Shown here: positions 21,663 to 64,000 of the stretch, in pieces | Layout: each line of letters opens with the position of its first letter | How positions within the stretch are numbered: the stretch's first letter is position 1 | Assembly (NCBI GenBank): GCA_044892525.1 | Contig: CM097885.1 | Span: 16,246,001-16,310,000 of the forward strand | Origin: Schmidtea polychroa | Taxonomy: Eukaryota | Direction: 5' to 3' | DNA length: 64,000 bases | Translations under genes and position numbers: made by a program | The notes under the pieces: generated by a model | Database searches by the model: none | What the model was told of the DNA's origin: nothing | The model's input: only the letters and a program-made list of their open reading frames with translations

Positions 21663-22595
21663 ATCACATCTGAGGTTAGTTTTTTTTTCAACATAAAATA
21701 ATATTAAAAATTTGAAAATAATATTGAAAATAGTGTGGGTATCTTATATTTATAAAGTACTTGTATATTTTATTTTATTTATTTTATTTTATTTTATTTT
21801 TTTATTAATTAATTATTTTTTAAACATAAATATGAAAAAAAAAATATTGAAACGGGTGATGGTGGCGAACCGGTAATTATCGCCACCTGTCTTTCGAACA
21901 CCCCCGGATCGATCCCGGTAATGTGCACATTTATTTCTCAGTTGTTTTCGGACCTCTTTCGGATTCGCTTTCGAATTCATTTGTACTTTCGAGCAGCACA
22001 CTTAAAACGCCGTTGAAATCGACTTCGTGAGCGAGAAGCGAATAATAAGGCGTGCTGCTATTATCGGATTGATTCTGATGTATGAGTCTGGCCAGCTTGT
22101 ATATTGGAAGAGATTTGATAAACGAAAGAGGTTGATAAATAAAAAAAAAAATTATCCGGATCAAAAAAAAACTGTTGAGGGGACAGTGAAAAAAAAAAAA
22201 AAAAATACCACTGTCCCCTCAGAGCAGTTTTACTATTTTCATAAAATTTTTTATTTTTAAAACTTACAAAACCTTAAGGTGATCAGGCGACCTAGATCAT
22301 TATGAATTAGGTAATCTGATATTCTTATAACATTAAATCCTTAAGACCAAGTAGTGAGGAATCTATGCACCCCGTTACCTTTTCTCGGAATTACTAATCT
22401 ATAAATACATCTATTCCGAACTTTTTTACTTTTAAGGGAAGAAATTAAGGGTTAATGGCAATAGGGGACAAAGTTTAAAAGTTAAAAAAAGTGAAGAATA
22501 TGGGGTAAAAAAGCATATAAATGTGGAAAATATGGGTCAATAGCGCTGTTTTTTTTTAGGGTGGGGGTGCTGGGGTGCATAGATTCCTCACTACT
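21663..22595 (-). mobile_element. Left-arm remnant of Polinton B
   Basis: Reverse complement of 58786-59718; ends ..CCTCACTACT followed by CCCCTC. Confidence 0.9.
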
Positions 22596-27860: not shown

Positions 27861-27927
<67 letters not shown>

Positions 27928-27950
27928 ATTACTACTATTATTATTATACA
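27430..27950. repeat. (ATT)n microsatellite tract
   Basis: Directly visible; source of the poly-I/L/N/Y ORFs. Confidence 0.98.
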
Positions 27951-28260
27951 TATCATCATTTATAATTACGGTACTACCTGTCAATCACCGAATGGGTTAA
28001 TGTAGGAACCCTTGTAGGGGTTCTGCCTATTTGGTGGTCTTTTTAGTTGTTCATATTAATACTATAATCATTTGTACTATACTATCTCTACTATAATCAA
28101 AAAAAAACATGTTCTCCCCTTCGGCTGGAAGCCAAGAAGATTTTACTAAAATAAAATTTGATTTTTTTTTTTTTTTTTTACAATTATTATTATTATGATG
28201 CTGATGATGATGATGATGATGATTAGCAACGGTAATAGCAACACATTGGTATCACCCCTC

Positions 28261-28547
28261 AGTAGTGGGGATATATCCCTAACGACCACAGGCCTCCCAC
28301 TGTTTTCATGTTTTATGGCCATTTTACCCCCAAAAACGTACAAAAAAACACTAAAAACCCTTAAAAACCTATATCTTTTAATTTCTTTATTCTGAAGACA
28401 TTTTGGTTTCAAAATAAAGACTTAAAAAAAAACAACAAAAATATTAAAAAAACAACAAAAATATTAATAAAACGGGGAAAAAAATACTGATAAAACTATG
28501 AAAAACGTTTGTCGGCTTGCGGTCGTTAGGGATATAAACACACTACT
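28261..28547 (+). repeat. Left terminal module of A, itself bounded by inverted repeats
   Basis: Ends in gcggtcgttagggatataaacacactact, an inverted copy of the terminus. Confidence 0.9.
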
Positions 28548-28740
28548 TGAGGATGTCAACTAGCAAGTTGCTATTTGACTAATTTATAATTTTATAAATC
28601 TTAATCTTGAAGAATAAAAAATTTTATGAAAATAGTAAAACTGCTCTGAGAGGACAGTGGTATTTTTTTTTTTTTTTTTTTTTCACTGTCCTCTCAACAG
28701 TTTTTTTTGATCCGGATCATTTTTTTTTTTTTTTATTTCA

Positions 28741-29038
28741 ACCTCTTTCGTTTATCAAATCTCTTCCAATATACAAGCTGGCCAGACTTATATATCAGAA
28801 TCAATTCGATAATAGCAGCACACCTTATTATTCGCTTCTCGCTCACGAAGTCGATTTCATCGGCGTTTTAAGTGTGCTGCTCGAAAGTACAAATGAATTC
28901 GAAAGCGAATCCGAAAGAGGTCCGAAAACAACCAAGAAATAAATGTGCACATTATAGAATCGATCCGGGGGTGTTCGAAAGACTGGTGGCGATAATTACC
29001 GGTTCGCCACCATCACCCGTTTCAATATTTTTTTTTTC
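28741..29038 (+). ncRNA. Candidate structured non-coding RNA or ssDNA element in Polinton A left arm
   Basis: Several long-range helices, GAAA loops, terminal T-run; conserved in B at 59249-59546; strand is inferred. Confidence 0.45.
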
Positions 29039-29170
29039 ATATTTATGTTTAAAAATTAATTAATTAATAAATAAATAAATAAAATAAACAAGATTTATTT
29101 CCTAAGATACCCACACCATTTTTCAATATTATTTTCAAATTTTTAATATTATTTTATGTTGAAAAAAAAA

Positions 29171-29245
29171 CTAACCTCAGACGTGATTTGAACCGCTAGC
29201 ATTTGAACCACTGTGCCAGTCTATTCCCACTGCGCTATCGGAGTT
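29171..29245 (-). ncRNA. tRNA-like Pol III unit A1
   Basis: Minus strand A-box TAGCGCAGTGG, B-box GGTTCAAATC, T9 terminator. Confidence 0.65.
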
Positions 29246-29414
29246 CGGATTTTTGTCATTTTTTAAATTTTTAATTAATAAAAAAATAAAATAAAATAAA
29301 TAAAATAAAATAAAAATAAATAAAAATAAATAAAATAAAATATTAATCTAAGATACCCACACCATTTTCAATATTATTTTCAAATTTTTAATATTATTTT
29401 ATGTTAAAAAAAAA

Positions 29415-29489
29415 CTAACCGTAGTTAGGATTTGAACCGCTATCCATTTGAACCACTGTGCCAGTCTAGCCCACTGCGCTATCGGAGTT
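29415..29489 (-). ncRNA. tRNA-like Pol III unit A2 (tandem duplicate of A1)
   Basis: A-box TAGCGCAGTGG, B-box GGTTCAAATCC, T9 terminator. Confidence 0.65.
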
Positions 29490-29525
29490 CGGATTTTTAT
29501 CATTTTTTAAATTTTTATTATAAAA

Positions 29526-30821
29526 ATGAATAATATAAATCTTAAAATTCAAGAAAAAAATAAATTAAATCTTGATTATAATAAAGAATTTACTCATGAA
29601 ATTAAAAAAAATGATATTTTAAAAATATCCCCAACTTCAGGATCTATTGCAAACTTAAATCGTAGGGGTGATATAGTTTTTCAATCTCTTCAAACATCAA
29701 ACCCAATAGATATTTGTAATGCCAAATTATATTATAAAATCGAATTAGAAATTGAAGCAAACAAAGATATAACCCTAGAAAATAATTTCTTTCCAAATTT
29801 ATTCTCCAACATGAGATTAAAACTAGGATCATCAGAAATTGAAACTGTTTTGCACCCAGGAGTATATTCTACAATGTTAAATTTTATTTTAACTGGTTGT
29901 GATTATAAAAACGAATATGGTGAATTAACAGGTTGGATTCCTGATGTTAATAAAGGAGATTTAGATAAAGATGGTTTAGATGTAAACCATGGTTACTATA
30001 AAAGAGCTGAACTTTATAAGTTGAAAAAATTTGAAGGTTATTTTGAATTAAAACACTTGTTCGGATTCCTTCAAAACTATAACCGGGTGCTCCATAATGT
30101 TTTTATAGAATTAGTTTGTAATAGAGTAGAAGGTGATAAAAGATTGTTCTATGGAGCTGCAGATACAAAAGCTAAATTAAAATTATCAACACTTGAATTG
30201 CATATACCTGAATGGACATTAAATCCACATTCTGAGATTAAACTCCTTGAAAGATTAAATTCCAACAAATCTATAAATGTAAATTATTTAAATAGAATCT
30301 GTAGTGAATTTAGTATGACAGAGGGTTCAACATATTCTATAAAGGTAGCAAATTTAGCATACCGACCAAGATATATCTTGATTGGATTCAAAGAAGTAGA
30401 TTCATCTTTCCAAAAAAATAACAATCTATTTATTCAAAAGATTGGAGATGATAATTTAAAAACAATCCAAATTCAATTAAATAGTTCTTATTATCCAATA
30501 AATAGAATGGAATTTAATATTGAAAATAATGAAAACATATTCCCATATCTAAATTATATTGAAACATGTTATTATTTCAAAGTTGAACCGCAATTAAGTT
30601 TAGAAGATTTCAAAAATTTATATTCTATATTTTGTATAAATGTATCAGACCAAGATGATCGCCTAGCTATAAATAATGTTGATGTTACACTTCATGTAAC
30701 AAAGGATTCTAATTTTAAAGCTAAAGTATATACATTAATATTAGAAGAAAAGAAAATAGAAATGAAATTATATGGTGGAAAGATTTCAATTATTGAAAAT
30801 GTTAAGGGAGATTCTTCATAA
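29526..30821 (+). CDS. Major capsid protein (double jelly-roll, Polinton PY)
   Basis: 431 aa; LENNFFPNLFSNMRLKLG..IE, RPRYILIGF, IFCINVS motifs; genomic context. Confidence 0.85.
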   Translation: MNNINLKIQEKNKLNLDYNKEFTHEIKKNDILKISPTSGSIANLNRRGDIVFQSLQTSNPIDICNAKLYYKIELEIEANKDITLENNFFPNLFSNMRLKLGSSEIETVLHPGVYSTMLNFILTGCDYKNEYGELTGWIPDVNKGDLDKDGLDVNHGYYKRAELYKLKKFEGYFELKHLFGFLQNYNRVLHNVFIELVCNRVEGDKRLFYGAADTKAKLKLSTLELHIPEWTLNPHSEIKLLERLNSNKSINVNYLNRICSEFSMTEGSTYSIKVANLAYRPRYILIGFKEVDSSFQKNNNLFIQKIGDDNLKTIQIQLNSSYYPINRMEFNIENNENIFPYLNYIETCYYFKVEPQLSLEDFKNLYSIFCINVSDQDDRLAINNVDVTLHVTKDSNFKAKVYTLILEEKKIEMKLYGGKISIIENVKGDSS

Positions 30822-30850
30822 GTAGATTCCCCCATAAAAAAACTTTTAAA

Positions 30851-32263
30851 ATGAGTAAATATTGGACATGTGAAAGTTGTAATTGTCAAGTTACAAGACA
30901 TCACAAAGCAAGTCATCTCAAAACTAAAAAACATACGAGAGTTGATATTACAGGAGGCGACCTACAATCTTCAAAAACAACATCTACAATATTAAAACCT
31001 TTTACTACAGAAAAATATCCAGGTGAAAGACATTTATTCCGTCACAATTATACTGGGCCAGGAACAAGATTAGATATTAGATTAGATGAAAATAATAATC
31101 CTAAACAAGGAGAAGAACCAATAAATAGAATTGATCAAGCAGCTTTAAAACATGACATTGCTTACAACTCTGAAGATCTTAGAGATAGACATGTTGCTGA
31201 TGTGAATTTAATACATGATTTAAATAATATACAAAATCCATCAAGCAAGGAAAAGATTCAAAGAGCTCTAGTTAAATTAGCAATGAAAGGTAAGATTTTC
31301 ATAGGCTTAGGACACAGTCCGATCACCATGGGTGCAAGATTTCCTAGGAAAGCAAAAGATGTTGCTAATAAAAAGATTATCGAACAAGCAGAGATTGAAA
31401 GATCCCTCGAGAGTACAGCTAAGACTAGTTTACAAACCCCAACAGAATCAGAAATAAAATATGCTAATGAATTACACCATGAATTTAGAAAAAATAAAAA
31501 ATATTTAAAAGTTCAAGTACATGAAAAAGATCAAACATGGTCTGCAGATTTAGTCTTTATGCCAACCAAATCATCAGACCCTGAAAAATATAAAATAATT
31601 TTAACAGTAATAGATTTATATACAAGATTTGCTTTTGCAAGGTGTTTAGAAAATAAAACAGGATATTCTATTACAGAAGCATTTGAAAATATATTTGAAG
31701 AACATCAAAGAATTCCAAAATATTTATGGTGTGATAAAGGAACAGAATTTTATAACAAAGTTTTTACAAAGTTTTTAAATGAAAATGATATTAAATTATA
31801 TTCAACAGAAAACGAAGGAAAAGCAGTCGTAGTTGAAAGATTAAATAGAACATTAAAAAATAAAATGTGGAAATATTTTACTGCTATTGGAAAACAAAAA
31901 TGGAACAATGAATTGTTACAAAAGATTGTAAATGAATATAATAATGATGTACATAGTTCTATAAAATCAACACCTTTAAATGCTTCCATGAAGCCTGAAA
32001 CCATTAAAGTGGTAAATATTGAAAATGATGTTATTGTTGATACAACCCCTATAAAACCAAAGTTTAAAATTGGTGACCGAGTAAGAATATTTAAATATAA
32101 AAATAAATTTGAAAAAGGATTCACAGCAAAATGGACAAATGAAATTTTTATTATAAATAAAATACATTATACAACTCCAATAACATATAGCATCATTGAT
32201 TTAAATAATGAAAAAATATTAGGTAGATTTTATAATAATGAACTACAGAAAACAGATTTTTAA
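30851..32263 (+). CDS. Zn finger + parvovirus-type PLA2 domain fused to a retroviral-like DDE integrase
   Basis: CESC..HLKTKKH; NYTGPG..DQAALKHDIAY..RHVAD; WSADL, WCDKGTEF, VERLNRTLK. Confidence 0.92.
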   Translation: MSKYWTCESCNCQVTRHHKASHLKTKKHTRVDITGGDLQSSKTTSTILKPFTTEKYPGERHLFRHNYTGPGTRLDIRLDENNNPKQGEEPINRIDQAALKHDIAYNSEDLRDRHVADVNLIHDLNNIQNPSSKEKIQRALVKLAMKGKIFIGLGHSPITMGARFPRKAKDVANKKIIEQAEIERSLESTAKTSLQTPTESEIKYANELHHEFRKNKKYLKVQVHEKDQTWSADLVFMPTKSSDPEKYKIILTVIDLYTRFAFARCLENKTGYSITEAFENIFEEHQRIPKYLWCDKGTEFYNKVFTKFLNENDIKLYSTENEGKAVVVERLNRTLKNKMWKYFTAIGKQKWNNELLQKIVNEYNNDVHSSIKSTPLNASMKPETIKVVNIENDVIVDTTPIKPKFKIGDRVRIFKYKNKFEKGFTAKWTNEIFIINKIHYTTPITYSIIDLNNEKILGRFYNNELQKTDF

Positions 32264-32274
32264 GTCGACAAGCC

Positions 32275-33054
32275 CTAAAACAAACTTTTCCATATTTCAG
32301 CTTCTTCTCTATCCAAATAAATATAATTATATTTTTCTTTCCAATGATTATCAACAAACATATCAAACATATTCTTATCAGGTTCAACATTTGAAAATAA
32401 ATCATTATAAATCATATTCTTATCACGCTTGTCTAATTTAAAAAATATAAAACAATTAGAATTATTTCTTATAGAGTTTTTATCTAAAGCATAATATGTT
32501 TGAGATATATAAATAACATTACAATTATTATGTCGACCTCGTGTAAAGTAACTCTTTTGAATCTCTTGATTTTTCATATTAACAACATCATCAAATATAA
32601 CTAGATTCTTTTTATCTTTAGGAAGTAAATCACAATGTAAAACATCTTCAGGTTTATTAGAGAATAAGATCTGGATTCCATCCCCTATATAATCATTTTT
32701 ATTACTAATATCTGATTCTAAAATCTTTTCCTTGTACCAATCAACCATATCACAAGGATGAAAAACCTCTTCGGGATATGTATGTTGATTTTTAAAAATA
32801 TCAATTATAGCTTTTTTAGTTAATTTATTTTCAAATCCACATTTCAAAAGTTGTAATTCCGGTTGGTTAATGGTTGTAGAATAAAAGATTAAATTATTAT
32901 AATCCAAAAATCCATCTTCTAATAACATTCTCATAAGAAGAACATTCTTTCCACATCCAGAAGATCCAATAATTAAGCATCTAAAATTATCAGGAAATAC
33001 TTTAATATTAAATTTAGATTTATGTCTATTTAAAATTGGTTTCCAAGTATCCAT
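32275..33054 (-). CDS. FtsK/A32-like DNA packaging ATPase
   Basis: Walker A GSSGCGKN, Walker B VIFDD, RGRHNN. Confidence 0.93.
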   Translation of the reverse strand: MDTWKPILNRHKSKFNIKVFPDNFRCLIIGSSGCGKNVLLMRMLLEDGFLDYNNLIFYSTTINQPELQLLKCGFENKLTKKAIIDIFKNQHTYPEEVFHPCDMVDWYKEKILESDISNKNDYIGDGIQILFSNKPEDVLHCDLLPKDKKNLVIFDDVVNMKNQEIQKSYFTRGRHNNCNVIYISQTYYALDKNSIRNNSNCFIFFKLDKRDKNMIYNDLFSNVEPDKNMFDMFVDNHWKEKYNYIYLDREEAEIWKSLF

Positions 33055-33070
33055 TTTTATTTATTATAAA

Positions 33071-33586: not shown

Positions 33587-33608
33587 TACCATTTTTAATA
33601 CCATTAAA

Positions 33609-34406: not shown

Positions 34407-34428
34407 ATACGAAGTTATAAAATATAAA

Positions 34429-34860
34429 ATGACTCCTTCAATATTAGATTTTTTAAAAACATTTGGAATAAATACAAAAACAAATTTTGATTTAAAAGAT
34501 TATGCAGATTATTTAAATTTAAAAATAAAAATATTAATGAATGATGAATTGTCGAGTCTGAAAGAAGACACTCCAAAGAATATCATTATAAATTATCAAA
34601 ATTCAAATGAAAAAGGATCTCATTGGGTTTTTATATATAATAAATCTATATACTTTGATTCTTTTGGGATTAAACCCACTAAAGAAGTTGAAGACTATCT
34701 CTCGGACTACACTTTTAATTCATTACAAGTTCAACCTAATAATACTAAAATATGTGGTATTTTAAGCTTATATGTTTTGTATAGATTGAATAAATCCAAA
34801 GGAGAAGGTTTCACTTCCTTAATCCAAGAAATTTATAATGATTTAAAATCTATACTATGA
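34429..34860 (+). CDS. Adenain-like cysteine protease
   Basis: GSHWV, YFDSFG, QVQ..ICG (His-Asp-Cys triad). Confidence 0.92.
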   Translation: MTPSILDFLKTFGINTKTNFDLKDYADYLNLKIKILMNDELSSLKEDTPKNIIINYQNSNEKGSHWVFIYNKSIYFDSFGIKPTKEVEDYLSDYTFNSLQVQPNNTKICGILSLYVLYRLNKSKGEGFTSLIQEIYNDLKSIL

Positions 34861-35627: not shown

Positions 35628-35664
35628 ATACGAAGTTCCACATGTCATTTTAAATTATTAATAA

Positions 35665-36675: not shown

Positions 36676-36683
36676 TTATTAAA

Positions 36684-37305: not shown

Positions 37306-37378
37306 AAAAATTTTTTGCCCTTCAAAAGGTTGATGTTGTCACTCTTAAATTAATTGTTGACATTTTTAAAAAAAAAAA

Positions 37379-40300
37379 TCATTTGATAGAATCTGATGTT
37401 AACTTTTCGAAATTAGTTTTTAGAACCTCTTTATGATCTTTAAATTCTTTATCACTTAGACCTTTTATATATTCAGGATCAGTATTAAAATATTTAAGTT
37501 CTAAAGATATAGGATTAAAAACTTGAGAATATAAAGGTCTGTCAATTCTTGGGGGATAAATGATCTCAACTCTATAAATATCAAGATCAGTAAGATTTAA
37601 ATCATAGACTTCATTTATTTTATCAAGACTTTTTATTATAGGGATTAAATCATTTCCTATAGGTAGTGTTGTTTTCATATCAGACAAGATGAATCTTTTG
37701 TCATCATAATTTGATAATGATACTTTTTGGGATTCTATCAAGTAGATATCATGCTTTTCACTTTTAAGTTGATGTACTTCATCAATTTTATCTTTATGAC
37801 CTGGATTCAATGTGTCTTTATAATCTTGATGAGAAAGTTTCCTGGCTACACATCTCTGAATTCCTTTACATCTGTTATCCTTTACAGGTTTCTCGGCTTC
37901 CAGTCCTCCCGGGAATATAGGATATCTATGTGTAATGCTTTCTTCTGTATCTGGGGTTTTAAATATAAATGTATGCTCTTCAAATTTAGGTTTTGTAAAT
38001 GTTTCGTATGAATATTGTTTAGCACGAATAAATATTCCATTTTCTATTGGGGTATTTGGTTTTTCATCTTTAAATGAAAATAACTCTCCAGATGAATTTA
38101 TTAAATTTGAAAGTATAGGATTTTCAGATATATCCCTTTCAAGGTCCTCAGTTCTTATTGTTAAAAACATTGAATCTGTATCCATTGCATGCATTGCTAT
38201 ATTAGGACCATATATAGGATGTAAGACATTATAATATGTTTCATACATTTGCAATTTTGAAAGTTCTAAAATTGCAAAGCCTATAAATATTGGTTTATTA
38301 TATGTTTTCTCAAAATTCTGTAGTTCTACTGCAGTAAGATTTTCAGAAAATACTTGTGCGTTTTTAAATGTAGGCTTTCCTAGCATACGATTATAACGGG
38401 CTACATCTTTTTCACTATTTGTCAAGAGTTCTATATTAGTATACTTGTCCACATTCTCCATTGTTTTCCCAAAGACTGAATTGTTTAAAAGTTTATAACC
38501 ATTGTCTTTTAAAAGGTTACCTTCTCTTTTTGCAATGTTTCTACAACGGATGTTCTCCTCGATGAAAGTCTTCATGAATGCTGCTTGTTTAAATCTTATG
38601 ACACTATGAACTTTTTTTAATATCATTCCTTGTGAAAGATAAAACTGTAGGAGTCTATAGTGACAAAGATAATAAGTTCGATCTGTTTGATCACAAAGAA
38701 GTTTCACTGTTGGAGGTTTATCTTGTGAGATTTGCCAGGATGAAAGTTCTTGGACATTAATCTTTCTTCTTATAGGAGCTAGAGGGAAATGTCTTGTTCC
38801 TGATTTTATATCACCTGGGTAATCGAGGTCACATTCTATAAAGTATCCTATTGGAGAATCTTTAGGGGTTGAACGTATTTCTTTTATAAGGTCTTTTAGG
38901 GTGGAACTCTGTATGGATTCTTCTTCTTCTTCTTCAGAGGAGGAGTATATCTCACGAAAGTCACTCATTGGTAAATACTGAGTCATAATTCCTGAATATA
39001 AAGCTGTTGCATCTATATAAAGTATAAATAGAGGATTTTTCATTCCTTCTAATACTTCTTTTAGTTCCTCATCGTTAAGTTTTATATATGGATCATCAGA
39101 GAGCATTCGGCTAGTAGTTATTGCATTTCTAGCTTTTATTTCTCTATTCCCCATTACTGAGGATACTCCTCCTCTAATGTTTGTTTTAATTAAATTAAAC
39201 ATGTCTTGCTCGGTTAAAAGATCTATAATTTTATCAGATTCTGGAAGATCTGAAGTCCAAATGGTATATAACATAGTATCCCAAGCTAAAGAAGGAGCTG
39301 TTATATAATTATAAGGTTTTAGGACAAAAGACTTTGTAAACTCTTCAAAGCAATCTGCCAGAATGTAAACATCTAAGGATAAGTACATACTTGTATATTC
39401 TCCTAAAGTTTTACAGTCGAACAGGTGAAACATTTTCTGAGCTCGGGAATATTCAGTGTCTGTAATCCCAGATTTTGAAAGTAGTGAATAAAAGTACTCT
39501 TTCTCTGGTAATTTTGTTTCCTTATATTTTTCAAAGGAGTCAACGTAGTCATAGGGATATATTCCCTTCGCCAAGCATGCGGAATATTCTTCTGCTGGTA
39601 TATTATTTTTTTCCAAGAACTCCCGAGTGATTTTAAAATCTTCTAGCTTTAATGTTTTTGCTATGCCATCTAAAGACATTTGGAGAAAGTTTAAGGAATC
39701 TATAAATTTTAATTTCCCATATTCAAGTGATTTATATTTTTCCTTTGTTAAGCCAATAACCTTGAAAGAGTTTTTGGCATTTGCTGCTAGATGCTTTATA
39801 AATAGATGTACGTCATAACCAAAAAGATTATGAAATATAACTGGTACAAATTTAGGAGTATGACAATTAAGATTGCAATCTCTATGGGCTGCTCCTCGAT
39901 AATTATTTTCACTTTTTAAATGATCGTGATCTATAACCTTATCATTAGTTGGGATCTCTTGTTTGCACATCCAACAGTTGAATGTATTTTTATATTCTTC
40001 TAATTGTTGATCTGAAATATTTTGAGGATACTTTGTTTTTAATGCTTCAAATATTTCATGTTCTAGATCATTTATACTTGTAGTAAAATGATCCAAGACA
40101 TCTTCTGAAGTTCCTTGAAATGCATATTCTCTAGATTCTATGACTTCGGGATAATTACTTTTAAATAATAATTTATAAGCAGATGGTAATTGTTTAGTTT
40201 TTTTAACACTATTGGGTTTATTATTTTTTCTTAGAAAGGCCTTCAACCTTGTTGGTTTCTCCTTCTGTTTAGAGGCTTTCCATTCATCCATGAGTTTATA

Positions 40301-41722
40301 TTTTTCTATTATTTTTAAATATTGCTTGACTAGATCTTGTTTATGATTTATAGATTCAAAGTCTCCGTAAATTACTCCTAATGTTTGTAATAAATTTGAA
40401 AAGTTTTTAAAATACATCCTGGGATCTGTAGGCATTCTAATTAAAGCTGGTGAATCCTTTTCACAAAATCTTGCATGCTTAATCATGGAGTTTTCAGTTG
40501 TTGAATAATGAAGACATCTTTTACACATTCCTCCTCCACTAGTTGGATTCTCTGGAGATGTAAAAGCTTGAAAGTTTTTTATTAAAATATAATGTTGATT
40601 ATTTTCATGTTCCAAGATTAAAAGATATATCTCCCTCGTGCTATCGCTTCCCTGTATTTCATAATCAGAAATATAAATTGGAATAATATCTCTGCATCCA
40701 CGTCCCCATCCTTTAACATGTTCATAAATATTAAGTTTAAGATTATTTAGTTTTTCAAATTCTGGAATGTCTTCTAGTTTCATTGGATGCATGAATCCTC
40801 CTGGGAATATTAATTCATTTTCATATTCTTTGTATTTTGAAACTCTTTGGGGGTTTTCGGTTTGAGGATGTAAATGTGCAAGTATTGACCACATGAAACC
40901 TTTGTTATCCTTATTCTGCACATTTATAACATTTTTAGATTTAAAGGGTGTAGGAATATAGGATTTAGGATTAGGTGGTAATCCCCTCCAATAATCAATC
41001 ACTAAAGATTGGAAGGAATGAAATACTAAGTTTGAATCTCCTAATTCATTTTCAATCTCTTCTTGTTTTGCTTCGACTGCTTGAATTATTTCTTTGATGC
41101 TTTTATTAAATCCTCTAGTTGAAAATAAATATTTAAAAGGCATTGGGATTTCAACATCTAAAGGAATTGTGTCTTCTTGTCCTTGGCTTTGCGCTCTCCA
41201 ATATTTTGCTTTTATTGTGATTTTATATTTTATAACATTATACCTTGTCGGTTTATAATTTTTTAAAGCCTCACAGAAAGAATCTTTTATATTTTTTTTA
41301 TTTCTCTTTATATATTCTCCAGGGGTTGCAGGTCCATTAATTTTTAATTTAAATTCATCTATATGATTAAAATTATCCCAGTTGTATTTTTCTCTTTCAA
41401 CATGATCAGGTTCTCCTTCTGAATAACATTCCTCATCCTCGGGATTTTCTTTTATATGTTCTTTTAAATGTTTTAAATAGTAGAAATTTATTTTTGTTGA
41501 AAAGTTACAATGAGGGCATGTAAATACTTCTCTAAGTCTCCCGATACAATTTTCAAAATGTTTATTATATCCTGAATGTAGATATCTTCCTTTACATTTA
41601 GGACAGAGTTTTGAATTTGTGTCATTAAGATTATTTTCTTTTAGTAAGTGAGCCTTCGACTTACAGTGGGAAATTAATCCTGTTTTATTTTTAAAAACTT
41701 TATTGCAAATATTAGAGTTCAT
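37379..41722 (-). CDS. Protein-primed family B DNA polymerase with N-terminal Zn fingers and an endonuclease VII-like insert
   Basis: YGDFES, CWMC..DHDH..RGAAHRDCN, FHNLFGYD, KLLNNSVFGKTMEN, DTDS, YDDKR. Confidence 0.95.
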   Translation of the reverse strand: MNSNICNKVFKNKTGLISHCKSKAHLLKENNLNDTNSKLCPKCKGRYLHSGYNKHFENCIGRLREVFTCPHCNFSTKINFYYLKHLKEHIKENPEDEECYSEGEPDHVEREKYNWDNFNHIDEFKLKINGPATPGEYIKRNKKNIKDSFCEALKNYKPTRYNVIKYKITIKAKYWRAQSQGQEDTIPLDVEIPMPFKYLFSTRGFNKSIKEIIQAVEAKQEEIENELGDSNLVFHSFQSLVIDYWRGLPPNPKSYIPTPFKSKNVINVQNKDNKGFMWSILAHLHPQTENPQRVSKYKEYENELIFPGGFMHPMKLEDIPEFEKLNNLKLNIYEHVKGWGRGCRDIIPIYISDYEIQGSDSTREIYLLILEHENNQHYILIKNFQAFTSPENPTSGGGMCKRCLHYSTTENSMIKHARFCEKDSPALIRMPTDPRMYFKNFSNLLQTLGVIYGDFESINHKQDLVKQYLKIIEKYKLMDEWKASKQKEKPTRLKAFLRKNNKPNSVKKTKQLPSAYKLLFKSNYPEVIESREYAFQGTSEDVLDHFTTSINDLEHEIFEALKTKYPQNISDQQLEEYKNTFNCWMCKQEIPTNDKVIDHDHLKSENNYRGAAHRDCNLNCHTPKFVPVIFHNLFGYDVHLFIKHLAANAKNSFKVIGLTKEKYKSLEYGKLKFIDSLNFLQMSLDGIAKTLKLEDFKITREFLEKNNIPAEEYSACLAKGIYPYDYVDSFEKYKETKLPEKEYFYSLLSKSGITDTEYSRAQKMFHLFDCKTLGEYTSMYLSLDVYILADCFEEFTKSFVLKPYNYITAPSLAWDTMLYTIWTSDLPESDKIIDLLTEQDMFNLIKTNIRGGVSSVMGNREIKARNAITTSRMLSDDPYIKLNDEELKEVLEGMKNPLFILYIDATALYSGIMTQYLPMSDFREIYSSSEEEEEESIQSSTLKDLIKEIRSTPKDSPIGYFIECDLDYPGDIKSGTRHFPLAPIRRKINVQELSSWQISQDKPPTVKLLCDQTDRTYYLCHYRLLQFYLSQGMILKKVHSVIRFKQAAFMKTFIEENIRCRNIAKREGNLLKDNGYKLLNNSVFGKTMENVDKYTNIELLTNSEKDVARYNRMLGKPTFKNAQVFSENLTAVELQNFEKTYNKPIFIGFAILELSKLQMYETYYNVLHPIYGPNIAMHAMDTDSMFLTIRTEDLERDISENPILSNLINSSGELFSFKDEKPNTPIENGIFIRAKQYSYETFTKPKFEEHTFIFKTPDTEESITHRYPIFPGGLEAEKPVKDNRCKGIQRCVARKLSHQDYKDTLNPGHKDKIDEVHQLKSEKHDIYLIESQKVSLSNYDDKRFILSDMKTTLPIGNDLIPIIKSLDKINEVYDLNLTDLDIYRVEIIYPPRIDRPLYSQVFNPISLELKYFNTDPEYIKGLSDKEFKDHKEVLKTNFEKLTSDSIK

Positions 41723-41793
41723 TTTTAGAATAAATTTTTTTACTGGATCCTATGTTTTCTATTTTTCTATTTTTATTTTTCTATTTTTTTATT

Positions 41794-41899
41794 CACCAGT
41801 ATTGTATTCACCAAGACCTGGATTCACCAAGACCTGTAGCACCAAGACATGTAGCACCAAGACCTGTAGCACCAGTATTGTATTCACCAAGACCTATAG
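41794..41899. repeat. 15/16-bp tandem repeat (CACCAAGACCTGTAG) x7 upstream of pPolB
   Basis: Directly visible. Confidence 0.9.
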
Positions 41900-41907
41900 T
41901 TCCTCCG

Positions 41908-42150
41908 AGTAGTGGGGATATATCCCTCACGACCGCAGGCCGATATACGTTTTTCATAGCTTTATAGCCATTTTTCTCCGTTTTGTAGGCTTAAATCCAT
42001 ATTTTTTAAATTTTGCGAAATAGAGCAAAATAAAAAATGTGCGTTTTTAAGGGTTTTTAGTGTTTTTTTGTACGTTTTTTGGGGTAAAATAGCCATAAAA
42101 CATGAAAACAGTGGGAGGCCTGTGGTCGTGAGGGATATATCCCCACTACT
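41908..42150 (-). repeat. Right terminal module of A, itself bounded by inverted repeats
   Basis: agtagtggggatatatccctcacgacc at 41908 and its reverse complement ending at 42150. Confidence 0.92.
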
Positions 42151-43399
42151 CCCCTCACTGGTATGGACAGCAGCGCCTTATAGCACTGGGATATATTTAC
42201 ACCATCATTTAGCAGCGGTACGTGTACATATATATGTATCTATGCTCCTCCCTGGTTACCATGATATTATCATTATTATTAGTAATTATATACATTTTTA
42301 ATTGAACTAAATAGAATTTTAATATTTTTGATTTGTACTGTTTTTATTGCCCTTTCTATATATTATTATTATTATTATTATTATCACATTTTGTGTCGGT
42401 GATACACAATTCTATTGGATGATGCGATTGGATCTGTACAAATGCCGCGTATATTTTAAACGATTATATAAGTTTACAATTTGTAAATAAACGTTTCTTC
42501 TGTATTTTTTGATTTTTGTTGGTTTTAGATTTTATTAATGTTTGCCTGACAGTCACACGAGTTACATGAAACAGGCTGTTATGTTTATGAAATCAATGTA
42601 CTTTACAGGAATTATATAATTAATATGGAGGAGTTACCGATTCTCTGACTTATTCCTATCCGGTTTATTGCCAAAGTTTCACGTAACGGGTGTTGAATGG
42701 TAAAGCTTTTTGGGTTCCTACTACAATACTAAAGTGTAAAATATAGTTTACCTGAAACCTACCATTACTATTATTATTATTCCCACTTTCATAACTATCA
42801 TATTTGTATGATTACGATCAGTGTTATTTAGTCGTTCTATTGTGGCTGTGGTTCCGATTTATATCATAATTGATTTCTGCCATTTATATCTTTATTATAT
42901 TAATAACATCTATATCGCTATTATAATTGTGATGTTGAGAAAATTGCTCTCATCATTAAATAGAGCCGTATATAAAATAGCAATGTTTGCGTGTAAAGCA
43001 AACTTTGTGTATATCGCATTTTTGCATTAAATTTTGAAAAACCGTGGCGCTCTCAAAAGGATCTAAAAATTATATGGCAAAATGTGATCTAGGTGTTTTT
43101 TTAGATTTTCTAGTTAATATTCCTATTTAAAAACCCTAATTTCAAAGCTAAATGTTACATTTAAGAAACTGTCCTACCAGATTGTCGTTGTTTACCATTC
43201 TATGCCTCCAATTCTATAATGGAAACAGAGTAACAATAATGTGATAATTCTTAATTTATCTGATTAATAACGTTTAAAAATAAAGTTCTGATTGCAGCTG
43301 AAAAGAGCTAATTGGGTCATATATATGAATCCTATATTATAGAATGTTGTTTAAATAATGTTTATTTTCTCGCTCATTCAATTCCATTCTCATTACTTT

Positions 43400-53469: not shown

Positions 53470-53533
<64 letters not shown>

Positions 53534-53569
53534 GTAATAATAATAATATTAATAATAATAATAATAATA

Positions 53570-53629
<60 letters not shown>

Positions 53630-53699
53630 GCAACAGTAACAAATAGTAATATTAAGAGTAATAATAATAATGATAATAGTAGTAATAATAATAAAAATA

Positions 53700-53777
<78 letters not shown>

Positions 53778-53810
53778 TTAATAATAATTAAGAGTAATAA
53801 TAATAATAAT

Positions 53811-53886
<76 letters not shown>

Positions 53887-53954
53887 GTAATATTAACAAT
53901 AATAATAATAATAATAATGATAACAATAATATAGATAATAATAACATAGAATAA

Positions 53955-56900: not shown

Positions 56901-58785
56901 CTTTTAATAACTAATAGTTCGTTGTCAAGTTTTTTCCTCTTATGAATGATGTCAGCCGGTTTTTTATTATTGTATTTTAAGGCATTAATATTTTCATTTA
57001 TCTTTTCTATTTCACAGAGGACTGTATCGCAGTCGGTCGCATCTGTATTTAAATTAATTATGAGGCTATTGATGAATGGTCGATATTTTCGAACATCATC
57101 ACTAGCAATTCTATTATTTAAAATTTTATTGATGATAATTTTGATTCTATTAATCATATTCTGGATACTAGGCGAGGTAATCCTATCATTTTTCATCAGG
57201 CATTCTATCATTTGACATACAAAAAAGGCTGATTCATTAGGAGTGCTGCATCTAGGGTATTCAAGGTATTGGAGTTGTATGTCGATAGGAGAAACAATTT
57301 TTTGTAAGTCCAAGATGGTTTCAAGAATGCTATTGGCAAGGGAATGATGAGTAGAGAGGCTTTCATCGGTTAAAGGGTCAATAAGAACTGCGAGTTGTCG
57401 ATGCTTATCTAGAAAGAAGAAAAACCAGTTGTCTTTAGCATGACACATTGGCATTATGATCTCGTTCCAATCGGAGAAATCTTTGAAAGGAAAGGTTTCG
57501 AAGAAGGTTTTGAAGTTATGTTGTATTAGGGCATTACCTATATAAGGGTCTACAAAGATAGTAGTTGGTCTGATGGCAAAAGAAAAGATGAAAGCCTTAA
57601 TAGTATGTTGTGACCATCATGTGGTCTCTTTATCAATGTTATTGGAGAATAGAATATTGTCAGGTATGTCTCTCGAGACGATTTCATTATTTGGGGTTAT
57701 TTTGGGGTTTTGGGTATCCAGAATATCAATAAAGAGATTATTTTTATTAGTATTATTTAATTCATTTGTATTGGTATATTGATCAATATTGTTTGGGCTG
57801 TTGGGGTGATTACCCTCGATATGGTTTTTGGAGTCTTGATATTTTATCCACTCTCCACAAAAGCAATAGATTTTTAAGTTAATGTCGAATTTTAAATTTT
57901 TATGGTGTTTTGACTTATGTGTGCTTATTGTATCTAAGGGGGTGTCAATGTCGAATGTTTGGAAGCACTTGTTGCAGTTTTTGTTTAGATTGTGGCATAA
58001 AAAACGGTTTGTGGAAGCAATTTTCAGGGTAATAATCTTAAGGAAGTCCTTGCTGACGCTACAGTGGTGTTCAAATTGATCAATGTGATTATATAGGTTT
58101 CTAAGGGTGATGGTGTTCAGGATAGATCTGCTTCCTTCCCCTTTGGGTCTACATTGGAGGCAGTCAATCAAAGAGTCGTAGGTTATAGCGATGTTGTGAA
58201 TTTCTTGGGCGTGTGACCTAATCCTATCAATATCAGTGGCAGAAATTTGTCCACAAAAAGAAGTATGGTGGCATCCACGACACTGTACTTTGCCCCGTAG
58301 ATCAAAGTAGTATAATATTTCATTATTTATGTCTTTGGACATTGTATCTTTATTTATTATAGTTTTTCTCGTCTTTATGAGATCTAAGGTGGGGGGGTTT
58401 AAGAGTGTACGTTTTACCTCTAACCTCTAGGCTTTTTTGGAATTTTATGTCGTTTCTGTGGTGGATGGGAGTGGATGTGGTTGCGTACTTTGGTGTCTCT
58501 TTATCAGAGGGTATAGTGTCTTTCAGGTTTATAAGGTTTGGTGATTTACGTTCAGTGTTTTCGACAGGGATAAGCCTTTTAGGAATAGGGGACGATCTAT
58601 CAAGGTCAATGTTTTCGGAGGAATAAAAGTTGTAGGTTTTCTTTTCTTACCTAACAGGGGTTATGGTTGCAGAGTCATCTAGCGGTGATGGTCTAACTGA
58701 GGGATATATTTTGGGTTCCTCAATTGAGTCGGTAAGTAGGGTAAGGTTATAAGAGTTGGATTTCTCAGGCAGAGGAGGTGAGGGG
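53955..58785 (-). mobile_element. NeSL-like non-LTR retrotransposon, copy 2
   Basis: Same ORFs and same three stops as copy 1. Confidence 0.9.
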
Positions 58786-59031
58786 AGTAGTGAGGAATCT
58801 ATGCACCCCAGCACCCCCACCCTAAAAAAAAACAGCGCTATTGACCCATATTTTCCACATTTATATGCTTTTTTACCCCATATTCTCCACTTTTTTTAAC
58901 TTTTAAACTTTGTCCCCTATTGCCATTAACCCTTAATTTCTTCCCTTAAAAGTAAAAAAGTTCGGAATAGATGTATTTATAGATTAGTAATTCCGAGAAA
59001 AGGTAACGGGGTGCATAGATTCCTCACTACT
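58786..59031 (+). repeat. 246-bp terminal module of B with perfect 24-bp inverted repeats
   Basis: AGTAGTGAGGAATCTATGCACCCC .. GGGGTGCATAGATTCCTCACTACT. Confidence 0.93.
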
Positions 59032-59701
59032 TGGTCTTAAGGATTTAATGTTATAAGAATATCAGATTACCTAATTCATAATGATCTAGGTCGCCTGATC
59101 ACCTTAAGGTTTTGTAAGTTTTAAAAATAAAAAATTTTATGAAAATAGTAAAACTGCTCTGAGGGGACAGTGGTATTTTTTTTTTTTTTTTTCACTGTCC
59201 CCTCAACAGTTTTTTTTTGATCCGGATAATTTTTTTTTTTATTTATCAACCTCTTTCGTTTATCAAATCTCTTCCAATATACAAGCTGGCCAGACTCATA
59301 CATCAGAATCAATCCGATAATAGCAGCACGCCTTATTATTCGCTTCTCGCTCACGAAGTCGATTTCAACGGCGTTTTAAGTGTGCTGCTCGAAAGTACAA
59401 ATGAATTCGAAAGCGAATCCGAAAGAGGTCCGAAAACAACTGAGAAATAAATGTGCACATTACCGGGATCGATCCGGGGGTGTTCGAAAGACAGGTGGCG
59501 ATAATTACCGGTTCGCCACCATCACCCGTTTCAATATTTTTTTTTTCATATTTATGTTTAAAAAATAATTAATTAATAAAAAAATAAAATAAAATAAAAT
59601 AAATAAAATAAAATATACAAGTACTTTATAAATATAAGATACCCACACTATTTTCAATATTATTTTCAAATTTTTAATATTATTTTATGTTGAAAAAAAA
59701 A

Positions 59702-59777
59702 CTAACCTCAGATGTGATTTGAACCACTATCCATTTGAACCACTGTGCCAGTCTATTCCCACTGCGCCATCAAGGTT
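59702..59777 (-). ncRNA. tRNA-like Pol III unit B1 (homologue of A1/A2)
   Basis: A-box TGGCGCAGTGG, B-box GGTTCAAATC, T9. Confidence 0.65.
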
Positions 59778-60023
59778 TGAATTTTTGTCATTTTTTAGAC
59801 TATAAATAATCGATTCAAGTTCTTTAACTCTTTCCTGTAATTGTTTCATTTTCTTCAATCTTATATCAGCAACATCTACAGCCTTCATATAAAAATGTCG
59901 ATACTTTTCATTATCTACCATCAACTCTTTGATGTATTCTAATGGTTCTTCTTCTCTTCTTTTCATTCTCTTATGTTTAACTTCATTCAATTCATTTCTC
60001 ATTCTTTCTTTTAACTCATCCAT
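59727..60023 (-). CDS. B-specific small coiled-coil protein
   Basis: 98 aa, AAAAATG start context like the other Polinton genes; absent from A. Confidence 0.6.
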   Translation of the reverse strand: MDELKERMRNELNEVKHKRMKRREEEPLEYIKELMVDNEKYRHFYMKAVDVADIRLKKMKQLQERVKELESIIYSLKNDKNSNLDGAVGIDWHSGSNG

Positions 60024-60188
60024 TTTTATAAATATTTTTTTATTGGATATATTAATTTTTGGTAGTTAAAACGTTTTTGATCTTAAATTTCCAAGAGTTG
60101 CCGTTGACCAATCACCTTAAAAATTTGTAAAAGTACTAAATCGAGTATGCTGATCAATATTTTGTTTAAAAAAAAATTTGAAAAAAAA

Positions 60189-60262
60189 TTGACCGAAATG
60201 GGATTTGAACCCATTGGTATTGGCAATGCAGTCGAGTGCTATTACCACTAAGCTAAACTCAA
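60189..60262 (-). ncRNA. tRNA-derived Pol III unit B2 (tRNA-Cys-like)
   Basis: TAGCTTAGTGGTAATAGCACTCGACTGCA..ATGGGTTCAAATCCCAT..T8; perfect T-arm, broken anticodon stem. Confidence 0.7.
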
Positions 60263-60422
60263 TATAAAATAAGTTGTTAATGTGTGACTATTTATTGATG
60301 AAATTAATAATTAATTATTCATTTTCTCGACAACTACCACTCAGATCGATCTGAAAATTTAAATATATACTAAAATCAGTACGCTGAATCAGATTCCGTT
60401 GAAAAAAAAATATCGAAAAAAA

Positions 60423-60498
60423 TTGACCAAAATTGAAAATTGAACCCGGTACTCCCGGTGATAAAATTGAAGCCTATTCCCACTCCGCTATAATGGCT
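60423..60498 (-). ncRNA. tRNA-like Pol III unit B3
   Basis: A-box TAGCGGAGTGG, weak B-box GGTTCAATTT, T-run. Confidence 0.5.
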
Positions 60499-60553
60499 TA
60501 CATAATATATTTAATTAATCCTATTGTGTGTGTGTAAATTTTAATATATAAAA

Positions 60554-61846
60554 ATGAATAACATAAATCTTAAAATTCAAGAAAAAAATAAATTAAATCT
60601 TGATTATAATAAAGAATTTACTCATGAAATTAAAAAAAATGATATTTTAAAAATCTCCCCAACTTCAGGATCTATTGCAAACTTAAATCGTAGGGGTGAT
60701 ATAGTTTTTCAATCTCTTCAAACATCAAACCCTATAGATATTTGTAATGCCAAATTATATTATAAAATCGAATTAGAAATTGAAGCAAACAAAGATATAA
60801 CCCTAGAAAATAATTTCTTTCCAAATTTATTCTCCAACATGAGATTAAAACTAGGATCATCAGAAATTGAAACTGTTTTGCATCCGGGAGTATATTCTAC
60901 AATGTTAAATTTTATTTTGACTGGTTGTGATTATAAAAACGAATATGGTGAATTAACAGGTTGGATTCCTGATGTTAATAAAGGAGATTTAGATAAAGAT
61001 GGTTTAGATGTAAACCATGGTTACCATAAAAGAGCTGAACTTTATAAATCTAAAAAATTTGAAGGTTATTTTGAATTAAAACACTTGTTTGGATTCCTTC
61101 AAAACTATAATCGTATACTTCATAATGTTTTTATAGAATTCATCTGTAATAGAGTAGAAGGTGATAAAAGATTGTTCTATGGAGCTGTAGATACAAAAGC
61201 TAAATTAAAATTATCAACACTTGAATTACATATACCTGAATGGACATTAAACCCACATTCTGAGATTAAACTCCTTGAAAGATTAAATTCCAACAAGTCT
61301 ATAAATGTAAATTATTTAAATAGAATCTGTAGTGAATTTAGTATGACAGAGGGTTCAACATATTCTATAAAGGTAGCAAATTTAGCATACCGACCAAGAT
61401 ATATCTTGATTGGATTCAAAGAAACAGATTCATCTTTCCAAAAAAATAACAATCTATTTATTCAAAAGATTGGAGATGATAATTTAAAAACAATACAAAT
61501 TCAATTAAATAGTTCTTATTATCCAATAAATAGAATGGAATTTAATATTGAAAATAATGAAAACATATTCCCATATCTAAATTATATTGAAACATGTTAT
61601 GATTTCAAAGTTGAACCGCAATTAAGTTTAGAAGATTTCAAAAATTTATATTCTATATTTTGTATAAATGTTTCAGACCAAGATGATCGCCTAGCCATAA
61701 ATAATGTTGATGTTACACTTCATGTAACAAAGGATTCTAATTTTAAAGCTAAAGTATATACATTAATATTAGAAGAAAAGAAAATAGAAATGAAATTATA
61801 TGGTGGAAAGATTTCAATAATCGAAAATGTTAGGGGAGATTCTTAA
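60554..61846 (+). CDS. Major capsid protein of Polinton B
   Basis: Near-identical to 29526-30821. Confidence 0.88.
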   Translation: MNNINLKIQEKNKLNLDYNKEFTHEIKKNDILKISPTSGSIANLNRRGDIVFQSLQTSNPIDICNAKLYYKIELEIEANKDITLENNFFPNLFSNMRLKLGSSEIETVLHPGVYSTMLNFILTGCDYKNEYGELTGWIPDVNKGDLDKDGLDVNHGYHKRAELYKSKKFEGYFELKHLFGFLQNYNRILHNVFIEFICNRVEGDKRLFYGAVDTKAKLKLSTLELHIPEWTLNPHSEIKLLERLNSNKSINVNYLNRICSEFSMTEGSTYSIKVANLAYRPRYILIGFKETDSSFQKNNNLFIQKIGDDNLKTIQIQLNSSYYPINRMEFNIENNENIFPYLNYIETCYDFKVEPQLSLEDFKNLYSIFCINVSDQDDRLAINNVDVTLHVTKDSNFKAKVYTLILEEKKIEMKLYGGKISIIENVRGDS

Positions 61847-61863
61847 TATTTTAACATTTTAAA

Positions 61864-63273
61864 ATGTCTTTAAATAAATATTGGAGATGTGAAACTTGTA
61901 ATTGTCAAGTTACAAGACATCATAAAGCAAGCCATCTTAAAACTAAAAAACATACAGTAGGTGACCTAATTCCACGAGCTGGAGGCGATTTGCAATCTTC
62001 AAAAACAACATCTTCAATATTAAAACCTTTTACTACAGAAAAATATCCAGGTGAAAGACATTTATTTAAACACAACTATACTGGACCAGGAACACGTCTA
62101 GATATTAGATTAGATGAAAATAATAATCCCAAACAAGGAGAAGAACCAATAAATAGAATTCATCAAGCAGCTTTAAAACATGATATTGCTTACAATTCAG
62201 AAGATCTTAAAGATAGACATGTTGCAGATGTGAATTTAATACATGATTTAAATAGTATCCAAAATCCATCAACCCAAGAAAAGATTCAAAGAGCTCTAGT
62301 TAAATTAGCAATGAAAGGTAAGATTTTCATAGGCTTAGGACACAGTCCGATCACCATGGGTGCAAGACTTCCTAGGAAAGCAAAAGATGTTGCTTATAAA
62401 AAGATTATCGAACAAGCAGAGATTGAAAGATCCCTCGAGAGTACAGCCAAGACTAGTTTACAAACCCCAACAGAATCAGAAATAAAATATGCAAAGGAAT
62501 TACACCATGAATTTAGAAAAAATAAAAAATATTTAAAAGTTCAAGTACATGAAAAAGATCAAACATGGTCTGCAGATTTAGTCTTTATGCCCAAATCATC
62601 AGACCCTGAAAAATATAAAATAATTTTAACTGTAATAGATTTATATACGAGATTTGCTTTTGCAAGATGTTTAGAAAATAAAACAGGATATTCTATTACA
62701 GAAGCATTTGAAAATATATTTGAAGAAAATCAAAGAATCCCAAAATATTTATGGTGTGATAAAGGAACAGAATTTTATAACAAAGTTTTTACAAAGTTTT
62801 TAAATGAAAATGATATTAAATTATATTCAACAGAAAACGAAGGAAAAGCAGTCGTAGTTGAAAGATTAAATAGAACATTAAAAAATAAAATGTGGAAATA
62901 TTTTACTGCTATTGGAAAACAAAAATGGAACAATGAATTGTTACAAAAGATTGTAAATGAATATAATAATGATGTACATAGTTCTATAAAATTAACACCT
63001 TTAAATGCTTCCATGAAGCCTGAAACCATTAAAGTGGTAAATATTGAAAATGATGTTATTGAAAAACCAAAGTTTAAAATTGGTGACCGAGTAAGAATAT
63101 TTAAATATAAAAATAAATTTGAAAAAGGATTCACAGCAAAATGGACAAATGAAATTTTTATTATAAATAAAATACATTATACAACTCCAATAACATATAG
63201 CATCTTTGATTTAAATAATGAAAAAATATTAGGTAGATTTTATAATAATGAACTACAGAAAACAGATTTTTAA
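61864..63273 (+). CDS. Zn finger-PLA2-integrase fusion of Polinton B
   Basis: Same motifs as 30851-32263; indels are in frame. Confidence 0.92.
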   Translation: MSLNKYWRCETCNCQVTRHHKASHLKTKKHTVGDLIPRAGGDLQSSKTTSSILKPFTTEKYPGERHLFKHNYTGPGTRLDIRLDENNNPKQGEEPINRIHQAALKHDIAYNSEDLKDRHVADVNLIHDLNSIQNPSTQEKIQRALVKLAMKGKIFIGLGHSPITMGARLPRKAKDVAYKKIIEQAEIERSLESTAKTSLQTPTESEIKYAKELHHEFRKNKKYLKVQVHEKDQTWSADLVFMPKSSDPEKYKIILTVIDLYTRFAFARCLENKTGYSITEAFENIFEENQRIPKYLWCDKGTEFYNKVFTKFLNENDIKLYSTENEGKAVVVERLNRTLKNKMWKYFTAIGKQKWNNELLQKIVNEYNNDVHSSIKLTPLNASMKPETIKVVNIENDVIEKPKFKIGDRVRIFKYKNKFEKGFTAKWTNEIFIINKIHYTTPITYSIFDLNNEKILGRFYNNELQKTDF

Positions 63274-63284
63274 GTCGACAAGCC

Positions 63285-64000
63285 CTAAAACAAACTTTTC
63301 CATATTTCAGCTTCTTCTCTATCCAAATAAATATAATTATATTTTTCTTTCCAATGATTATCAACAAACATATCAAACATATTCTTATCAGGTTCAACAT
63401 TTGAAAATAAATCATTATAAATCATATTCTTATCACGGCGATCTAATTTAAAAAATATAAAACAATTGGAATTATTTCTTATTGAATTTTTATCTAAAGC
63501 ATAATATGTTTGAGATATATAAATAACATTACAATTATTATGTCGACCTCGTGTAAAGTAACTCTTTTGAATCTCTTGATTTTTCATATTAACAACATCA
63601 TCAAATATAACTAGATTCTTTTTATCTTTAGGAAGTAAATCACAATGTAAAACATCTTCAGGTTTGTTAGAGAATAAAACTTGAATTGCCTCCTGCCCTT
63701 CTTCACAAATATAATCATTTTTATTACTAATATCTGATTCTAAAATCTTTTCCTTATACCAATCAACCATATCACAAGGTTGAAAAACTTCTTCAGGACA
63801 CCTATGTTGATTTTTAAAAATATCAATTATTGCTTTTTTAGTTAATTTATTTTCAAATCCACATTTCAAAAGTTGTAATTCTGGTTGATTTATGGTTGTA
63901 GAATAAAAGATTAAATTATTATAATCTAAAAAATCATCTTCAAGTAACATTCTCAAAACAAGTACATTCTTTCCACATCCAGAAGAACCAACAATTAATA
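63285..64000 (-). CDS. Packaging ATPase of Polinton B (5' partial)
   Basis: LIVGSSGCGKN at the window edge, VIFDD, RGRHNN. Confidence 0.92.
   Translation of the reverse strand, partial: LIVGSSGCGKNVLVLRMLLEDDFLDYNNLIFYSTTINQPELQLLKCGFENKLTKKAIIDIFKNQHRCPEEVFQPCDMVDWYKEKILESDISNKNDYICEEGQEAIQVLFSNKPEDVLHCDLLPKDKKNLVIFDDVVNMKNQEIQKSYFTRGRHNNCNVIYISQTYYALDKNSIRNNSNCFIFFKLDRRDKNMIYNDLFSNVEPDKNMFDMFVDNHWKEKYNYIYLDREEAEIWKSLF

Follow-up and report, generated by a model that had tools for sequence, protein, structure and literature searches.

The closest described relatives of the locus reported here are the animal Polintons/Mavericks of adintovirus type, which in the accessible sections of the papers on them (PMC8097293, PMC8502044) resemble our element A in carrying a protein-primed DNA polymerase B (pPolB), an rve integrase, a double jelly-roll (DJR) capsid protein, a packaging ATPase and a probable adenain, as well as in their (AGT)2...(ACT)2 ends, 6-bp target duplication and size (13.9 kb). 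As far as the available sections of the sources go, end conservation in vertebrate Mavericks consists of a 6-bp motif (PMC8097293), nematode Polintons have swapped their pPolB and conserved their terminal inverted repeats (TIRs) (10.1101/2023.08.22.554363), and truncated EMALEs have regained TIRs (PMC8547959). Excision, replication and end recognition of Polintons are treated through models, and by no experiment, in the portions of the literature covered here.

The window analysed here, a 64,000-nucleotide stretch of Schmidtea polychroa DNA, contains one complete element of this kind (A) and the left part of a second (B), which begins at 58786 and extends past the window's edge, its right end and pPolB lying outside. 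Element A is a Polinton as defined in the accessible text of PMC8097293 (pPolB, integrase, DJR capsid, ATPase, a probable protease, TIRs and target duplication). Unlike the animal Polintons described there, every visible end of A and B forms an inverted repeat of its own, with a loop of 190-230 nt; one near-identical body carries two end types that are unrelated, and the two insertions share a target word. The nematode pPolB1/pPolB2 Polintons (10.1101/2023.08.22.554363), in the sections available, are alike in module replacement within one lineage and in an HNH insert in the polymerase; however, in the nematode elements the polymerase changed and the TIRs stayed, whereas between A and B the end changed and the integrase stayed. 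The end-module model for Polinton-like viruses (PLVs) as well as virophages (PMC11296320) is likewise similar in that TIRs are replaced and the capsid module is kept, but as set out in its accessible sections it replaces TIRs together with replication and integration genes, while the integrases of A and B are 96% identical. The terminal palindromes of Halocafeteria virophages and PLVs (10.64898/2026.07.28.741278) likewise place inverted repeats within the TIR, next to the target duplication, and the available text proposes that they fold and help replication; those palindromes are tight (52 nt in the example shown, with a gap limit of 10 in the screen) and occur mostly in elements without pPolB. 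The A and B ends differ from them, to the extent that they are described, in being long-loop panhandles in a pPolB element that come in two unrelated versions.

In adenovirus and parvovirus replication, panhandles and terminal hairpins, respectively, allow a displaced strand to regain a duplex origin by the pairing of inverted repeats; adenovirus pairs its two far ends, and parvovirus ends occur in flip and flop orientations. Each cassette of A and B, in contrast to adenovirus, has its own local partner rather than the far end. In the accessible parts of the Polinton, PLV and virophage literature, including 10.1101/2024.03.18.585575 and PMC3014272, we met no body that carries two unrelated self-pairing end types along with one and the same integrase; end structure may also be treated in Kapitonov and Jurka (2006) and Pritham (2007), the founding papers, in Repbase and in supplementary TIR tables.

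Anatomy of the elements and their terminal cassettes

Table 1. Features of elements A and B in the window.
Feature	Coordinates	Strand	Remarks
Element A, complete Polinton/Maverick	28261-42150		13,890 bp; AGTAGT start, ACTACT end, CCCCTC on both sides
A target-site duplication, left copy	28255..28260	+	CCCCTC, 6 bp; identical 6-mer at 42151-42156
A left terminal cassette	28261..28547	+	287 nt; inverted outer and inner arms; 29/34 first nt pair
A-type spacer	28548..28612	+	65 nt; unrelated to B spacer; equals loose end of run X3 contig at swap point
A non-coding left region, common to B	28613..29525	+	hairpin and two tRNA-like A/B-box units (minus strand)
A tRNA-like units	29185-29250, 29428-29495	-
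A major capsid protein (MCP), double jelly roll	29526..30821	+	PF21738, E 4.6e-28
A integrase (INT)	30851..32263	+	PLA2-like domain and rve core; PF08398, PF00665 (E 8.2e-12)
A packaging ATPase, A32-type	32275..33054	-	PF04665, E 4.8e-08
A adenain-like maturation protease (probable)	34429..34860	+	Atlas feature scores 0.95-0.97
A protein-primed DNA polymerase B (pPolB)	37379..41722	-	1447 aa, open frame; PF03175, E 3.9e-15
A right terminal cassette	41908..42150	-	243 nt; arms 27 nt perfect; 33/34 pair
A target-site duplication, right copy	42151..42156	+
B-prime	21663..22595	-	B-type end at 22350-22595; duplicate of first 933 nt of B, 1 difference; inside inverted duplication
B target side	58778..58785	-	CCCCTCAC on minus strand, same 8 nt as A right flank
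B left terminal cassette	58786..59031	+	246 nt; 24-nt perfect inverted arms; deep in runs X18, X20
B-type spacer	59032..59125	+	94 nt; run X20 contig bridges cassette and spacer
B non-coding left region	59126..60553	+	sharp start of homology to A at 59126; three tRNA-like units
B tRNA-like units	59716-59780, 60201-60270, 60437-60505	-
B MCP	60554..61846	+	97.9% identical to A MCP
B integrase	61864..63273	+	open frame; 95.7% identical to A integrase
B packaging ATPase, cut by window end	63285..63998	-

The features of both elements are collected in Table 1. The Atlas clusters matched by the probable protease of A carry PF00770 on 19% and 62% of their members, and Pfam and PDB sequence scans gave no match to it. 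A minor capsid protein was looked for at 34857-35627, where A matches unnamed viral clusters only. Short direct repeats of the GGTCTTGGTG type lie between the right cassette and the start of pPolB (41794-41895), and the tRNA-like units between the left end and MCP have look-alikes of both the A-box and the B-box, with further length variants of this array in contigs of sequencing runs.

All three visible ends (A left, A right and B left) are cassettes of 243-287 nt in which the outer arm is an inverted copy of the inner arm, each cassette thus holding a second, inverted copy of the end 190-230 nt inside. Each of the three folds better than all 200 of its shuffles (z of -5.2 for A left, -9.9 for A right and -7.3 for B). 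Over their first 108 nt the left and right ends of A are equal at 105 positions; the loops then differ and the inner arms agree again, the two ends aligning with a score of 270 against 40. At arm position 21 the two left arms carry A and the two right arms C, this being the one site at which variants covary within an end. Position 28 has the opposite pattern, common to the two outer arms and to the two inner arms, and four changes, of which three lie within positions 8-11, are private to the left inner arm; pairing between arms is thus not strictly kept. The flanks of each single cassette differ, none of the three having a 6-bp target-site duplication of its own. Flip/flop of the parvovirus type was looked for; the loops of A's two ends have the same orientation, and no flipped cassette was seen there or among 15 listed joints of 48, of which none changes strand.

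The boundary between end and body, and its recurrence

The initial annotation had aligned A and B inward from about 28610/59125 and ascribed to them nearly the same MCP and integrase, and both statements hold, the alignment starting at 28613/59126 with 92 of 95 aligned bases identical (97%) in its first block. From there inward, 100-nt stretches are mostly 90-100% identical as far as the ATPase, MCP and INT included, with a drop to 78-85% at the MCP-INT junction; the tRNA-like array before MCP differs in length. The two MCPs are identical at 422 of 431 aligned residues and the integrases at 445 of 465. Residues 1-204 hold 15 of the 20 integrase substitutions and residues 205-470 the other 5, the core and C-terminal part thus differing by only these 5 positions and two small indels. 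The divergence is patchy over the coding block (29526-32976 vs 60554-63998), runs of 99-100% identity standing beside others of 90-93%, which suggests frequent recombination among copies.

Outside the boundary, the foreign part of the B end consists of two pieces, the cassette and its spacer, neither of which aligns to A better than shuffled sequence does. For the cassette interiors the scores are 40 and 39, with shuffle means of 34.5 and 33.2 (reached by 200 and 181 of 1000 shuffles), the score of the spacers is reached by 811 of 1000, and the B spacer has no match in the window apart from its inverted duplicate. The arms share the word AGTAGTG-R-GGA, that is, 10 of their first 11 nt, and beyond the first 7 nt positions 8-30 are identical at 7-10 of 23 (P 0.08-0.41). 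Within the first 110 nt there is a single weak patch of likeness, 39 nt long and found post hoc; 7 and 46 of 1000 shuffles reach it, and it may be a remnant of a distant common origin of the two ends. The earlier view that the termini have only AGTAGTG and a palindromic layout in common is thus borne out for the layout and for the chance-level identity beyond 7 nt, and needs amending for the longer shared word and the weak patch. Measured from the inner AGTAGT arm, the swap point is 94 nt further in for B and 65 nt for A. Because foreign DNA continues for 94 nt past the inner arm of B, the exchange did not take place at an integrase end.

Just inside the swap point, both elements have a hairpin (28648-28694 and 59161-59203) in which A and B differ on both sides (A-T vs G-C), and the B version of which contains the target word GAGGGG/CCCCTC.

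Contigs of 4 of the 21 listed sequencing runs were placed on window positions 58200-60900. The depth of the B cassette loop, given as a sum over contigs and not as a copy number, is 352x that of the flank in X18 and 39x in X20, and 0.5x and 1.2x, respectively, that of the MCP gene; X18 may be the window's own sample, and both runs come from one study. One X20 contig spans 58856-59057 with one difference, and another covers 58549-58785 and then leaves the window sequence exactly at 58785/58786; the edge of B therefore marks an insertion, with GAGGGG as part of the flank. One X3 contig departs from B at 59126 and continues with the sequence of the A spacer (28583-28612). Taken together, this A-type join and the deep B cassette in X18 and X20 place both end types on this body outside the window. 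Also in X20, the B-type internal stretch 59799-60004 (0 differences) has a depth of 270, against 307 for the cassette, as expected if the two are linked. Among the 32 listed of about 47,000 pieces, none bridges the B spacer into the body. In both X18 and X20 the outer 51 nt of the cassette are 2.3-2.4x deeper than the loop, a weak hint of a second, right-hand B-type end, which the layout of A would predict; overlap between short contigs could have the same effect. Runs X1 and X3 leave 58837-59109 without cover and cover the body, a contig gap that does not show absence and serves as no more than a lead towards end types that differ between samples.

No donor element for the B end was found in viral, metagenome or prokaryote contigs or in the window. 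The arm patterns have no match in viral or metagenome contigs, and 11 cassette-shaped pattern matches (2 viral, 9 prokaryote) were taken as unrelated, none of them showing tblastx likeness to A. Viral contigs yielded no relatives of MCP or INT. An alignment search of metagenome contigs with INT gave 130 relatives, of which 80 were kept, and none of these 80 contigs, most of them too short to reach an end, carries a cassette. One 16.4-kb metagenome contig with a related integrase (L015:1-16423) has inverted terminal repeats at both ends, without AGTAGT there.

Origin of the B end

We favour, with a probability of about 0.5, the reading in which A and B are sub-lineages of one Polinton family, and B gained a foreign AGTAGT end by recombination at 59125/59126 and then spread, likely because the integrase, and probably the polymerase, needs little more than a short end word. 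This explanation is built on two independent insertions and three visible ends. From near-identical integrases beside two unrelated end types we infer that recognition by the enzyme extends little past the end word; a short word agrees with the 6-bp motif of vertebrate Mavericks and with the nematode case, in which pPolB was replaced and the TIRs were conserved, as reported in the accessible sections. The integrase that moved B could also have been that of another family, acting in trans.

In the mechanism that we propose, the inverted inner copy of the end would allow a displaced single strand to fold into a local panhandle, serving as a duplex origin or snap-back primer without the far end. 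Local panhandles would free the left and right ends from full matching, and one end could be replaced as a unit; the new end would then probably be copied to the other terminus, giving B elements that are B-type at both ends. The exchange may have been a replication or repair cross-over at the AT-rich tract beside the first conserved hairpin, with no integrase cut at the inner arm. A local panhandle would explain the drift between left and right loops, the within-end covariation of position 21 and the replaceability of one end. The HNH/endonuclease-VII-like insert of pPolB could cut such end hairpins. This insert was also considered as a mark of hairpin-ended elements and rejected in that role, its motif being present in 106 of the 120 relatives listed.

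The main rival, which we consider unlikely, holds that B descends from a second Polinton family, of which it retained ends and polymerase, and acquired the capsid-integrase-ATPase block of A, in which case the end type would track pPolB and only the integrase would be tolerant. Since pPolB is adjacent to A's right end, a single block could carry the two together, and the arms of A and B differ at positions 12-24. It is at these arm positions that a polymerase-primer complex of adenovirus type would bind. In the available sections of the respective papers, end-module turnover has been proposed for PLVs (PMC11296320) and replicase-capsid reassortment is described as common (10.64898/2026.10.13.758929). 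Against this rival, nematode pPolB was replaced under conserved TIRs (10.1101/2023.08.22.554363) and the published end-module model swaps the integrase too, which is retained here. Moreover, a protein search with A pPolB returned 552 relatives and no second close pPolB type, the best matches being 43-47% identical in a database that also lacks A's own pPolB.

The initial annotation had regarded the termini as exchangeable origin and attachment cassettes. This stands in so far as the B end is recurrent and both end types occur on one body, but the end did not move as an integrase-bounded unit, the swap lying 94/65 nt inside. In its strongest form the idea would make the ends plug-in parts, that is, self-pairing origin-plus-attachment cassettes independent of their partner, with one integrase and one polymerase accepting unrelated cassettes, end types sweeping host populations alone, viable hybrid A/B elements and an integrase that picks a GTGAGGGG-type target; as a whole we hold this to be quite doubtful.

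That no swap took place, and that the A and B ends diverged in place from one ancestor by very fast evolution in which hairpin arms copy each other, appears improbable. The equal size and layout of the cassettes, the common AGTAGTG-R-GGA, the 39-nt patch and the fact that A's own left and right loops already differ would all fit such divergence. Nevertheless, identity rises from chance to 97% within a few bases, the unpaired spacer is unrelated as well, and the left and right ends of A are still plainly alignable. Even less probable is a cassette that forms a miniature element in its own right (AGTAGT...ACTACT) and is mobilised by the integrase, the Polinton being a composite transposon and a B-type unit having landed near an A-type end: each cassette does have two inward-facing end words, but no single one is flanked by a 6-bp duplication, foreign DNA runs on past the inner arm, and cassette depth is near that of MCP instead of far above it. 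A chimera or misassembly restricted to the B locus, which the initial annotation had named as an outcome that would undo its reading and which the recent inverted duplication with rearranged ends in this region might favour, is highly improbable given a cassette whose depth in two runs, one of them labelled as another organism, exceeds that of its flank 39-352x, the exact break of the X20 contig and the A-type join in X3.

If A and B are indeed sub-lineages of one family with exchanged ends, they form a natural pair of one integrase and two unrelated ends that narrows the cis requirement to about 7-11 nt and offers ready substrates for an in vitro end-recognition assay. Replication from local hairpins gains a population test, as arm variants should covary within an end, and a classification of Polintons that relies on the TIR can divide a single family.

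Polymerase, target word and genomic setting

The insert in A pPolB lies at about residues 583-620 (window 39863-39976, minus strand), with the Cys and His motif present, and its motif aligns with relatives annotated PF02945. Beta-type (group 2) adintoviruses are recognised by a PolB divergent from pfam03175 and by an N-terminal OTU-like domain; the weak partial PF03175 match and the HNH insert of A PolB would be compatible with this type, to which A may belong. A Beta virion module had been guessed from the PLA2 domain and was dropped, as PMC8502044, in its accessible sections, assigns PLA2X to Alpha-class modules.

The right flank of A and the flank of B (minus strand) have the sequence CCCCTCAC in common. 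For two host sites taken at random from this window, P of sharing an 8-mer in either orientation is about 1.8e-4, a value for one comparison noticed post hoc, and the shared target word fits one integrase with a target preference. Among titles and abstract openings, we found no paper on target preference of Polintons.

B-prime was considered as a second independent insertion and rejected, as it belongs to a 6.35-kb inverted duplication (21663-28017 vs 53380-59718; 99.9% identical, 5714 of 5719 aligned bases), and for this reason it is not independent evidence for the B-type end. Each copy of the duplication has one native-looking end and one that looks broken, a pattern resembling an inversion whose breakpoint was duplicated, and a 157-bp exact repeat (44244-44400 vs 53225-53381) adjoins one of its breaks. 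The duplication is very recent and could be an assembly effect. Both copies carry a decayed non-LTR retroelement (22983-27026 on the plus strand and about 54360-58400 on the minus strand), which has in-frame stops and an end near an (ATT)n tract; B is inserted just upstream of it. A reverse transcriptase domain is present, and a Cys/His knuckle and a restriction-like endonuclease motif were read by eye; we take the element to be of NeSL/R2 type.

The window as a whole is AT-rich eukaryotic DNA carrying TRAF-like and proteasome genes. The TRAF-like genes (RING, zf-TRAF, MATH) are older duplicates, both direct and inverted (7576-16246 vs 44326-48410, 88-97% identical). Sequence near-identical to the window is present in runs under two organism labels and in sediment metagenomes, some of them freshwater.
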